Shown here in pieces: positions 2,366-5,938 of a stretch of 5,938 bases of DNA (position 1 is the stretch's first letter; each line of letters opens with the position of its first letter). The stretch lies in IMG/VR virus record IMGVR_UViG_2695420596_000010; one strand, 5' to 3'. Both the position numbers and the translations under genes were made by a program. Below the pieces are notes generated by a model. The model saw only the letters and a program-made list of their open reading frames with translations, searched no databases and was not told the DNA's origin. Origin of the DNA: a virus. Lineage: Duplodnaviria; Heunggongvirae; Uroviricota; Caudoviricetes.

Positions 2366-2476
2366 TGAAGGACGTGTCAACTCTATTTTGTAAGCTATCC
2401 AGACTCACAGTTGCAGATCGACGAGTAACTTACATACAGCACAAAAAAACAATATGCACGTGCTTTTAGACTAGAC

Positions 2477-2491
2477 TTACCATAATGGTAA
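2477..2491. promoter_or_regulatory. Palindrome TTACC-ATAAT-GGTAA at the 5' end of the toxin gene; candidate autoregulatory operator of the TAC operon
   Basis: Perfect 5-bp inverted arms separated by 5 bp, overlapping the ATG at 2485. MqsA-family antitoxins are known to bind short palindromes in their own promoters; the assignment here is inference. Confidence 0.4.
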
Positions 2492-2895
2492 CAAGTATGA
2501 TTCTTAGCAGATATGTGGGAACTCCTCCCCGTGATGGCGAGGACAGAAAGATTCAAGGTGGTCCGCTTTATTTAGATATCATTGATTTGATTGATGAATG
2601 TGACACACTGCCTTGGACTAGACGGTGTATCAGGGATGTTCAATCGCTTTCTTTAGATGCAGATGACATCAAATCTATGGTGATAAAAGCAGTCACTAAA
2701 GGGAGATTTCTAGGTTCAGAATGGTGTCAAGGCAGTAAACCAGGTGTATGGGCAGCTTGTGATGCTTATAGCTTTGAGCACTCATTTTGGTGCCAAGCTA
2801 TGCATAAAGAACTTAATAACGAGTTCTACATTAAATTTTTTGTAAACATTACTGGCAATGTAGTGCTTACAGTATCTCTTCATCTCTCTAATTGA
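2485..2895 (+). CDS. MqsR-like toxin (type II toxin-antitoxin toxin, RelE/MqsR-fold mRNA interferase family)
   Basis: 136-aa ORF directly upstream of an MqsA-like antitoxin. By eye it aligns with E. coli MqsR (PLYLDIIDLI...LSLDADD..., EFYIKFFVNITGNVVLTVS versus MqsR QVYLKITVIHDVLIVSF). Toxin-before-antitoxin order is characteristic of mqsRA. The start is uncertain: 2485 has no clear RBS and 2497 is an in-frame alternative. The region is AT-rich. Confidence 0.6.
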   Translation: MVTSMILSRYVGTPPRDGEDRKIQGGPLYLDIIDLIDECDTLPWTRRCIRDVQSLSLDADDIKSMVIKAVTKGRFLGSEWCQGSKPGVWAACDAYSFEHSFWCQAMHKELNNEFYIKFFVNITGNVVLTVSLHLSN

Positions 2896-2919
2896 GTGAT
2901 GATAAATGAGGATTTTTAT

Positions 2920-3507
2920 ATGAGAAACAACAACATATGTCCAGTTTGTGGTGTAGGTCATCTCACCGTGGAGATGGAGTATGATGATGTTACTTATAAA
3001 GGGGAAACAAAAAATCTCCCAATAAGGTTTTCTGTGTGTGATCAATGTGGTTCGGAAACTGCCACACCAGTCGATTTACGAGAAAACAAACGAATTTTCA
3101 ATGAATACAAAAAGTCTATCGATGGACTTTTAACAGGAAAAGAATTAAAAAAAATTAGAACTGAAGTATGGATGATAACCCAGCAAAAGGCATCCTCTAT
3201 ATTTGGTGGGGGGCCTAAGGCATTTTCCAAGTATGAATCTGATGATGTCATTCAATCAGAAGCAATGGATAAACTGATGCGTTTAGCAGCAGAAGTTCCT
3301 GATGCATTCAAAAGGTTACGGGAATTATCTGGCGAAATCAAAGTTGAAAGAACAGTCTCATCATCTAAATCTTTACCTATATGGAAATCTGAAGCAAAAG
3401 CACAATTTGAAAACGATGATCAGGGATTTGACAGCAAATCACCAGCCCAAACAAAAATGAATCAAACATCAATAAAGATAAAAACTGTTGCTAAGCGGGT
3501 AGCATGA
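2920..3507 (+). CDS. MqsA-like antitoxin: N-terminal zinc-ribbon, central XRE-type HTH, and a ~60-70-aa C-terminal extension (candidate chaperone-addiction segment)
   Basis: Motifs CPVCGVGHL and VCDQCGSE (zinc ribbon), then ITQQKASSIFGGGPKAFSKYESDD, closely resembling the MqsA HTH (LTQKEASEIFGGGVNAFSRYEKG). GAGGA (2908-2912) sits 7 nt upstream of ATG 2920. The track ORF begins at GTG 2896, immediately after the toxin stop (2893-2895). The C-terminal tail (from ~3300) has no counterpart in the 131-aa E. coli MqsA. Confidence 0.8.
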   Translation: MRNNNICPVCGVGHLTVEMEYDDVTYKGETKNLPIRFSVCDQCGSETATPVDLRENKRIFNEYKKSIDGLLTGKELKKIRTEVWMITQQKASSIFGGGPKAFSKYESDDVIQSEAMDKLMRLAAEVPDAFKRLRELSGEIKVERTVSSSKSLPIWKSEAKAQFENDDQGFDSKSPAQTKMNQTSIKIKTVAKRVA

Positions 3508-4007
3508 TGAATGAACTTCTTAGATCAGCAATAGACGCATTATCAATAATGCATATCAATATCAGAGAATCTAACTTTGCTTTTTCTGAAGGGTATAATA
3601 GCTTTAACTTCAACAGCATAAATAAGCAAACACAATCATTTCGTAAGATAAAAAAAATCGAAGCTATTGAATTAGTAAGTGACGATGACTCATTAAAAAA
3701 TGAGCTATATTACTCTTTTCACTACTCAGTTGGGCTTAGATTTATTGCAAAATCCGAAGAAACATCTAAAGACGAAAATGATGTTGATACAATTTTTTCT
3801 ATAGAAGCAATTTTTGAGGCGATATATCGCTCAAAGAGAGAATTATCTAAAGAAGAGTTAGAAGAATTTGCTAAGCAAAATGTAGGTTTTAATGTATGGC
3901 CTTTTTGGCGAGAGTATGTTCAAAACAGCACATCCAGAATGGGAATTACTACAATAGCTATACCATTCTTTAAATTCAATAAATCAGACATACCTTCATT
4001 AGATTAA
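3504..4007 (+). CDS. SecB-like chaperone (third component of a toxin-antitoxin-chaperone module)
   Basis: 167-aa ORF whose ATG overlaps the antitoxin stop (ATGA at 3504-3507), suggesting translational coupling. The C-terminal half aligns by eye with E. coli SecB (TIFSIEAIF versus GIFSIAGI; NVWPFWREYVQNSTSRMGITTIAIPFFKFN versus [29 protein letters not shown]). Confidence 0.7.
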   Translation: MMNELLRSAIDALSIMHINIRESNFAFSEGYNSFNFNSINKQTQSFRKIKKIEAIELVSDDDSLKNELYYSFHYSVGLRFIAKSEETSKDENDVDTIFSIEAIFEAIYRSKRELSKEELEEFAKQNVGFNVWPFWREYVQNSTSRMGITTIAIPFFKFNKSDIPSLD

Positions 4008-4021
4008 ATTCAAATATAACT

Positions 4022-4048
4022 CCCGGCTACCGTGCCGGGTTTTCTTTT
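4022..4048 (+). terminator. Rho-independent terminator of the TAC operon
   Basis: Stem CCCGGC (4022-4027), loop TACCGT, stem GCCGGG (4034-4039), followed by TTTTCTTTT (4040-4048), 15 nt after the chaperone stop codon. Confidence 0.65.
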
Positions 4049-4189
4049 GCCCTCCCCCCATCACACAAACCGTTCAAAAAACCACCACGACCTCACTTCA
4101 GTTATCGCTATGCGATGCAAGTCACAAAATTAATTCTTTTTGCTATCAAACATTTAATATCAAAACACATCAACTAATAGCAATAAGCA

Positions 4190-4218
4190 TTGATATCACC
4201 AATAGCAATAGCTATTAT
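4190..4218 (+). promoter_or_regulatory. Candidate pL-like promoter with overlapping operator dyad (OL-like)
   Basis: -35 TTGATA (4190-4195), 17-bp spacer, -10 TATTAT (4213-4218), reading towards int. The dyad AATAGC-AATA-GCTATT (4201-4216) overlaps the spacer and -10, and matches 13 of 16 positions of the OR-region site AATAGCAATGCGTATT (1596-1611). Confidence 0.5.
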
Positions 4219-4411
4219 CACCATATCGCAACAACACAACGATACGGCAACCACCTGATTCACCGTTGCGATGACCGCTTAGATCCGCAGCTTGAATTTC
4301 AGCAGGCTTCGGGGAGTGCGAGGGATGAAACGGACGCGTGAACGTCGGTGTGACCAGCTGAAATCAACTCAACATTTCATACCTTAGTCGCTTCAACGAG
4401 GCGGCTTAGTT

Positions 4412-4702
4412 ATGACAACCGGCGGCCATCCACCGCCTGAATACGCGCAGAAGTCTTTATATGTTCAGCAGCCCAGCTTACGGGCAGGAGTTTTTATGGT
4501 TCATCAACATTACGGAACGCAGACCGTTAATCGCGGTGCGGTCATGCCAGGAATGCTGGTCAAACGCAAAGATGGTACCTGGACTGCATCAGCTAATTTA
4601 CACGGACGACTTTATCTGCATCGCGGCATTGAGCGCACTTATACCCGTGACTTGCTCGTGGAAGTTTTTCTCGACGGACGCGGCAACGGTCTGAATCACT
4701 AA
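4412..4702 (+). CDS. Hypothetical protein (no recognisable family)
   Basis: 96-aa ORF with ATG and a weak GAGG ~10 nt upstream, between the pL-like promoter and int. No recognisable motif; it is not lambda-Xis-like or N-like. An alternative-frame ORF (4461..4694) overlaps it, so coding status is uncertain. Confidence 0.3.
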   Translation: MTTGGHPPPEYAQKSLYVQQPSLRAGVFMVHQHYGTQTVNRGAVMPGMLVKRKDGTWTASANLHGRLYLHRGIERTYTRDLLVEVFLDGRGNGLNH

Positions 4703-4777: not shown

Positions 4778-5938
4778 ATGAACGCTTATTACATTCAGGA
4801 TCGTCTTGAGGCTCAGAGCTGGGCGCGTCACTACCAGCAGATCGCCCGTGAAGAGAAAGAGGCAGAACTGGCAGACGACATGGAAAAAGGCCTGCCCCAG
4901 CACCTGTTTGAATCGCTATGTATCGATCATTTGCAACGCCACGGGGCCAGCAAAAAAGCCATTAAAGAGTTTGGATTAGGCAGAGACAGGCGAATCGCAA
5001 TCACTGAAGCTATACAGGCCAACATTGAGTTATTTTCAGGACACAAACACAAGCCTCTGACAGCGAGAATCAACAGTGATAATTCCGTTACGTTACATTC
5101 ATGGCTTGATCGCTACGAAAAAATCCTGGCCAGCAGAGGAATCAAACAGAAGACACTCATAAATTACATGAGCAAAATTAAAGCAATAAGGAGGGGTCTG
5201 CCTGATGCTCCACTTGAAGACATCACCACAAAAGAAATTGCGGCAATGCTCAATGGATACATAAACGAGGGCAAGGCGGCGTCAGCCAAGTTAATCAGAT
5301 CAACACTGAGCGATGCATTCCGAGAGGCAATAGCTGAAGGCCATATAACAACAAACCCTGTCGCTGCCACTCGCGCAGCAAAATCAGAGGTAAGGAGATC
5401 AAGACTTACGGCTGACGAATACCTGAAAATTTATCAAGCAGCAGAATCATCACCATGTTGGCTCAGACTTGCAATGGAACTGGCTGTTGTTACCGGGCAA
5501 CGAGTTGGTGATTTATGCGAAATGAAGTGGTCTGATATCGTAGATGGATATCTTTATGTCGAGCAAAGCAAAACAGGCGTAAAAATTGCCATCCCAACAG
5601 CATTGCATGTTGATGCTCTCGGAATATCAATGAAGGAAACACTTGATAAATGCAAAGAGATTCTTGGCGGAGAAACCATAATTGCATCTACTCGTCGCGA
5701 ACCGCTTTCATCCGGCACAGTATCAAGGTATTTTATGCGCGCACGAAAAGCATCAGGTCTTTCCTTCGAAGGGGATCCGCCTACCTTTCACGAGTTGCGC
5801 AGTTTGTCTGCAAGACTCTATGAGAAGCAGATAAGCGATAAGTTTGCTCAACATCTTCTCGGGCATAAGTCGGACACCATGGCATCACAGTATCGTGATG
5901 ACAGAGGCAGGGAGTGGGACAAAATTGAAATCAAATAA
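4778..5938 (+). CDS. int: Tyrosine site-specific integrase, lambda Int family; catalytic region near-identical to lambda Int, N-terminal ~66 aa unrelated (chimeric)
   Basis: From [38 protein letters not shown]... to the C-terminal ...[49 protein letters not shown] the protein matches my recollection of lambda Int almost residue for residue, including the catalytic motifs (R in GQRVGDL, HELR, LLGH, tyrosine in SQYRDD). The first ~66 aa ([21 protein letters not shown]...) do not match the lambda Int arm-binding domain. AGGAG lies 7 nt upstream of the ATG. Confidence 0.9.

Follow-up and report, generated by a model that had tools for sequence, protein, structure and literature searches.

Three-gene module and its products

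The DNA analysed here, a stretch of 5,938 nucleotides from IMG/VR virus record IMGVR_UViG_2695420596_000010 (termed the window), carries three open reading frames (ORFs) directly after the gene of a cI-like repressor, at positions 2485-2895, 2896/2920-3507 and 3504-4007. They encode an MqsR-type toxin, an MqsA-family antitoxin and a SecB-like chaperone, and correspond to the published anti-phage system MqsRAC. With a type II toxin-antitoxin (TA) pair of the MqsRA type followed, in one operon, by the gene of a SecB-like chaperone, the module has the composition of a three-part toxin-antitoxin-chaperone (TAC) system. Systems of this kind are built on TA pairs of the HigBA, MqsRA or HicAB family. 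The repressor gene, the module with its leader and terminator and the operator-like region beyond it are all given on the plus strand. A first-pass annotation, made from the letters of the window alone, had placed three co-oriented genes directly behind the repressor, and this arrangement was found as described; none of the module ORFs contains a frameshift or an internal stop codon.

For the toxin gene, the start at 2485 (136 amino acids) is most likely the correct one, since the MV N-terminus encoded there (MVTSM...) is conserved across the whole toxin family. RefSeq and the published clones, among them the pBAD clone, begin the toxin at ATG 2497 (132 amino acids), four codons inside this conserved extension. 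The extension comprises about 25 residues (MVxxxIxSxYxG..P....RKIxGGPLY; window 2485-2560) and is absent from E. coli MqsR. The antitoxin ORF spans 203 or 195 amino acids depending on the start chosen. A GAGGA motif lies 7 nt 5' of ATG 2920 and homologous antitoxins start with MRNNN, MKNEN or MKCNA, so that ATG 2920, rather than GTG 2896, is the most likely start and leaves a gap of 24 nt to the toxin gene. The chaperone gene (167 amino acids) overlaps the antitoxin gene in an ATGA at 3504-3507, as had been predicted, with its ATG (3504-3506) lying on the antitoxin TGA (3505-3507).

The unit is closed by the anticipated intrinsic terminator at 4022-4048, consisting of a 6-bp all-GC stem with a 6-nt loop (CCCGGC-uaccgu-GCCGGG) followed by a TTTTCTTTTG tail; its fold has an energy of -13.9 kcal/mol (z = -3.4 against shuffled sequences). 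No terminator-like site was found on the plus strand between the repressor gene and the toxin gene (2365-2485), and an Rfam scan of the window returned no RNA family. Four minus-strand ORFs within the module (2395-2556, 2782-3045, 3042-3251 and 3491-3619) were taken as chance ORFs of AT-rich DNA.

By curated criteria, the middle protein is an MqsA-family antitoxin, scoring 113.2 bits against TIGR03830 (E-value 6.9e-33; cut-off 61.8) and 63.9 bits against PF15731 (2.1e-17; cut-off 30). A phmmer comparison with E. coli MqsA (3gn5) aligned residues 6-133 with residues 4-132 of 133 (4.6e-07). The MqsA domain (residues 1-133; 2920-3318) combines a zinc-ribbon, with the two CxxCG motifs CPVCG and CDQCG, and a C-terminal helix-turn-helix (HTH); C7, C10, C40 and C43 are invariant in the homologues. 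A 62-residue C-terminal extension (3319-3507) containing the aromatic residues W150, F159 and F166 continues past the point where the alignment with E. coli MqsA stops. Homologues have extensions of similar length, which are poorly conserved except for an aromatic Q[WF] position present in four of them. Variable extensions with aromatics past the antitoxin domain are features of chaperone-addiction (ChAD) regions according to Bordes 2016 and Mets 2024, and by analogy the extension is a candidate ChAD region.

The chaperone has a SecB fold, and its closest solved structure is Rv1957, the TAC chaperone of M. tuberculosis; the same protein was the top match when a chaperone profile was compared with the Protein Data Bank (PDB; 0.0047). 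By sequence, the protein appears SecB-like only marginally, with 16.5 bits against Pfam SecB (PF02556; 0.0084; cut-off 26) and 15.3 bits against the NCBIfam SecB equivalog NF004392. A weak match to the PADLOC profile PD-T4-9_C was also obtained (7.3e-4). RefSeq names the protein 'protein-export chaperone SecB', although the cut-off of the NCBIfam model is 143 bits. This name and the SecB fold would fit a third gene that is an ordinary protein-export SecB paralogue unrelated to the two-gene MqsRA pair. We consider this extremely improbable, as both SecB scores stay under their cut-offs, the nearest structure is a TAC chaperone, the start codon of the chaperone gene runs into the antitoxin stop, distant homologues have the gene together with the toxin and a long MqsA, and MqsC is needed for toxin neutralisation (Vassallo et al. 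2022). The reading as an ordinary export SecB was rejected, since it conflicts with the scores, with the translational coupling and with the genetics in the literature.

The toxin adopts an MqsR/RelE-like fold and is encoded upstream of an MqsA antitoxin. In a structural alignment with E. coli MqsR it shares 19% identity and is 38 residues longer. The classification of the toxin as MqsR-like holds by fold and synteny, yet it belongs to a divergent branch. Residues W76, C77, A86, A87, D89, Y91, K113, S127 and H129 (132-aa numbering) are invariant in the toxin family. Its product name in E. coli RefSeq is 'hypothetical protein'. PADLOC gave no matches for the toxin or the antitoxin, which says nothing on MqsRAC from that library.

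Identity with MqsRAC and relation to other systems

The 'MsqRAC gene fragment', which Vassallo et al. 2022 list in their Table S8, was found to be identical to window 2397-2775 in all 379 nt compared, and the gene-specific parts of six published cloning primers match exactly at 2497, 2872-2895, 3490-3507, 3504-3526 and 3985-4007. Because of this fragment and primer identity, and because no E. coli copy of the module falls below 99.8% identity, we conclude from the sequence comparison that the window carries the already known MqsRAC system cloned from E. coli C496_10. Gene order and gene sizes are the same, and no difference was detectable in the compared sequence. The proposed TAC module of MqsR/MqsA/SecB type is upheld by fold, synteny, the MqsA scores and this identity.

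MqsRAC was reported to protect robustly against T2 and not against T4 (Vassallo et al. 2022, Nat Microbiol; PMC9519451), which gives substance to the phage-defence function guessed in the first-pass annotation. In the same study, the toxicity of MqsR was relieved solely by MqsA and MqsC together, induction of extra MqsC abolished protection, and defence against T2 was shown with the genes on a low-copy vector behind their native upstream region. Inhibition of T2 was confirmed in a follow-up by the Wood laboratory (PMC10783111), and a 2024 preprint includes MqsRAC among the 132 catalogued defence systems that it surveys. MqsRA-type TACs had been defined earlier (PMC3581621, PMC5105189). An MqsRAC sequence or accession was not found in the supplementary material of PMC10783111 or the Mets preprint, strain C496_10 is not mentioned in Bordes 2016, and the texts searched on C496_10 MqsRAC do not state a prophage or immunity-region context. 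The supposition that such a module had not been described in this context proved wrong, as the system is published as C496_10 MqsRAC and the related HigBAC is already known from the rexAB slot downstream of cI.

HigBAC from E. coli NT1F31 (Mets et al. 2024) is, like MqsRAC, a TAC encoded by a lambdoid prophage, and it lies at the variable site downstream of cI where lambda has rexAB. It shares the SecB-like chaperone and a ChAD-bearing antitoxin, whereas its toxin-antitoxin pair belongs to the HigB/HigA family and it defends against siphoviruses rather than T2. Its chaperone senses lambda gpV through competition with the ChAD (Mets et al. 2024). A second three-gene TAC defence system, CmdTAC (PD-T4-9), has a chaperone distantly related to MqsC. 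It differs in having an mRNA ADP-ribosyltransferase as its toxin and an unrelated antitoxin, in line with the lack of PADLOC matches of the window toxin and antitoxin, and in being carried on a P2-like phage and defending against T4. The same tripartite logic is found in M. tuberculosis HigBA1-SecB(TA) (Rv1955-1957) and in the MqsRA TAC of V. cholerae RC385 (Bordes et al. 2016), whose toxin N-terminus, MVNNAIN as read from a primer, fits the window toxin family. These two systems have been studied as stress-responsive TA systems and not as phage defence, and they stand in another host and another genomic context. E. coli K-12 MqsR/MqsA has the antitoxin domain, the toxin fold and the toxin-first gene order in common with the window module, but lacks both a chaperone and the C-terminal extension of MqsA.

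The module is rare, being carried by 18 of 5,426 complete E. coli genomes, always on the chromosome, as a single copy and with 99.8-100% identity. In the intact inducible phage PhiR70_1 it occupies the same place with 99.9% identity. Another lambdoid prophage has a homologous module, with a toxin that is 35% identical, flanked by an S24 cI and an N gene, and further homologues outside phages keep the three-gene order. Klebsiella phage 2b LV-2017 (KY271395; locus L004 4053-5569) carries three intact TAC genes behind its repressor, which are about 74% identical and unannotated in GenBank. In a metagenome-assembled genome of Rhodocyclaceae (locus L005 347-2926), a homologous three-gene module adjoins the gene of an 859-aa ResIII helicase-domain protein with no phage immunity region, and this copy may stand in a defence-island context. 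Literature searches on PhiR70_1 and on RefSeq accession WP_021568458 returned nothing.

Immunity region and prophage context

The window was identified as E. coli chromosomal DNA. A lambdoid, DLP12-like prophage sits at the lambda attachment site, with ybhB and ybhC on either side. The repressor gene upstream of the module (1673-2365; TTG 1637 is an alternative start) encodes an HTH and an S24 peptidase domain, as evident from profile matches to Peptidase_S24 (1.5e-18), HTH_3 (1.5e-06) and Phage_CI_repr (0.0028). RefSeq lists the protein as XRE family regulator WP_001295669.1, and it is labelled cI in phage PhiR70_1. A stretch of the cro/cI intergenic region at 1595-1644 recurs as a direct repeat at 4175-4224 (72% over 50 nt) with operator-like AATAGCAAT repeats, and the best promoter-like site in a scan, TTGATA-17-TATTAT with 10 of 12 matches, is located at 4190-4218 within the OL/PL-like region 3' of the module (4150-4225). 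Judged from these repeats, the two regions probably represent OR and OL/PL in this type of immunity.

Since it is flanked by cI and the OL/PL-like region, the module is in the position of lambda rexAB, as the first-pass annotation had read it. Lambda rexB, too, is followed by a terminator, to which the module terminator is equivalent. RexAB, sharing the position between cI and OL/PL, the terminator at the end and the presumed exclusion role expressed in the lysogen, is a membrane ion-channel type system rather than a TA system and is not homologous; no match to RexA or RexB was found in Pfam or PADLOC for any of the three module proteins.

The GC content of the module is 35%, compared with 47-48% in its flanks. 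In strain EC01 the cI protein is identical (WP_001295669.1), but a single unrelated ORF of 126 aa (WP_001228516.1) takes the place of the TAC; the exchanged segment is bounded by window positions 2353 and 4258 (EC01 locus L003 3707-4469), and no significant Pfam or PADLOC match was obtained for the replacement ORF. Given the low GC content, this swap and the phage and non-phage homologues, we conclude that the module is a mobile low-GC cargo cassette in a swappable slot after cI.

The published functional clone includes the leader upstream of the toxin gene (2397-2484), a candidate for the module's own promoter/operator. The part of this leader at 2433-2484 is nearly identical to Klebsiella phage 2b LV-2017, though the module overall is only about 74% identical, and it contains an AGCAC...GTGCT inverted repeat. 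A search for inverted repeats 5' of the toxin gene at four loci, including more distant homologues, did not reveal a shared operator. The promoter scan was uninformative (5 sites versus 8.9 expected), the sole site near the toxin start overlapping the start codon.

Downstream, an in-frame gam-int fusion ORF (4778-5938) joins the first 64 gam codons to the integrase from about residue 33. Compared with intact PhiR70_1, the junction at 4964/4965 corresponds to a deletion of about 3.2 kb, and as bet, exo and xis are gone, the prophage should be unable to excise. The gam-int junction of EC01 differs, with window 4862-5007 being absent, which suggests independent or successive deletions.

These features bear on whether prophage addiction or stabilisation is the primary role of the module, by post-segregational killing that would penalise prophage loss, with defence as a side effect of plasmid expression. 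Type II TA modules classically stabilise mobile elements, HigBA of Rts1 being an example, and the module has been kept 99.8-100% identical in a defective prophage that carries a gam-int fusion and lacks bet, exo and xis. An addiction module would be needless for a prophage unable to excise, though; moreover, defence against T2 was seen on a low-copy vector with the native upstream region and responded to chaperone dosage, and the slot hosts exclusion or defence cargo in lambdoid phages. Addiction as the primary role is therefore judged unlikely, although addiction and defence are not mutually exclusive.

Several other features of the window were recorded. After the OL/PL-like region follows an ORF for a Kil-like septation inhibitor (4412-4702; phrog_294, 4.3e-37), and no ORF for an N-like antiterminator is present between the TAC terminator and kil. 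Within the O-like replication gene, five tandem palindromic units of about 19 bp (TTTACCTGATTCGGGTAAA) with a spacing of 19-29 bp form an array at 215-336 that looks like lambdoid ori iterons. The best E. coli genome matches all start at window 147, the first 146 bases (O-like gene) being divergent, which suggests a mosaic boundary.

Proposed mechanism and alternative roles

It is very likely, in our judgement, that the module is the anti-phage TAC system MqsRAC, carried as low-GC cargo in the rexAB slot of a defective lambdoid prophage at the lambda attachment site. In the mechanism we propose, the MqsR-fold toxin would be kept inactive by the MqsA-family antitoxin, which in turn would be unstable through its 62-residue, aromatic-containing extension unless bound by co-translated MqsC. 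Upon infection with a sensitive phage (T2), a newly made phage protein would compete for or deplete MqsC, MqsA would then be lost by proteolysis, and the freed toxin, presumably an RNase, would shut down the infected cell so that the phage is not propagated. For the trigger, the proteolysis step and the RNase activity, we infer these roles from a comparison with the analogous systems HigBAC, CmdTAC and M. tuberculosis TAC; competition at the ChAD would be part of the same scheme, and expression in the lysogen may occur by read-through from PRM or from the module's own promoter.

A number of observations weigh against this reading. The toxin scores 14.7 bits against Pfam MqsR_toxin (PF15723), below the gathering score of 26.2. 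A profile of 43 toxin homologues searched against the PDB sequences did not retrieve MqsR, and hhalign of the toxin profile with the E. coli MqsR sequence was insignificant. As these two comparisons were negative, homology to MqsR rests on the fold, the synteny and weak Pfam hits, PF15723 being weakly matched by 14 of the 43 homologues (best P0045; 2e-05, 25.4 bits). The catalytic residues of MqsR are K56, Q68, Y81 and K96. Compared at the level of motifs only, K56 apparently corresponds to G in the toxin family and K96 to the invariant H129; Q68 appears to be replaced by the near-invariant C88, and the YxK of MqsR is apparently kept as Y111 and K113. Since K56 is apparently not conserved and K96 is apparently replaced by His, the label 'GCU-specific RNase' is an assumption for this toxin. 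The family profiles foreseen in the first-pass annotation thus supported MqsA, with scores above the cut-offs, while those of MqsR and SecB stayed below. The direct comparison with the published fragment spans 379 nt, and identity over 2776-4048 is deduced from the primers and from the agreement of at least 99.8% among all E. coli copies. While HigBAC is triggered by lambda gpV, the trigger protein of MqsRAC is hypothetical. Finally, the survivors of T2 attack were read as persisters in PMC10783111, and the outcome was thus interpreted as persistence and not as abortive infection.

Such persister-like survivors of T2 attack in the presence of MqsRAC, together with the induction of the M. tuberculosis TAC by several stresses, would be in line with a stress-responsive or persistence TA system, which is activated by host stress (heat, starvation or proteotoxic chaperone load) and not by a specific phage protein. 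The module is situated in a phage immunity region, however, its protection is specific in acting against T2 and not T4, and the triggers of sister TACs are defined structural proteins of phages. A stress-responsive system is therefore regarded as improbable, even more so than addiction as the primary role; a role in stress or persistence could likewise coexist with defence.

Returning to MqsRAC as an anti-phage TAC, the toxin conserves a distinct set of residues (C88, D89, Y91, K113, S127 and H129) besides the N-terminal extension of about 25 residues. This set and the score below the Pfam family threshold make a different substrate or chemistry conceivable. We tentatively raise the possibility, with rather less than even confidence, that the toxin does not functionally copy the GCU-cutting E. 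coli MqsR and that the module is co-transcribed with cI from PRM, as a true rexAB analogue of PhiR70_1. If such co-transcription occurred in PhiR70_1, the question would arise of how the phage escapes triggering its own TAC on induction.

The recognition of a TAC in rexAB-like placement from letters alone provides a calibration point, as the module turned out to be a published, validated system. Public records name the module genes inconsistently or leave them unnamed, and the toxin is much more divergent from MqsR than its name implies. The analysis gives the published MqsRAC system an exact place, between cI and OL/PL in a lambdoid prophage that occupies attB, and also in an intact inducible phage, and defines this slot as a swappable cargo position behind an identical repressor.

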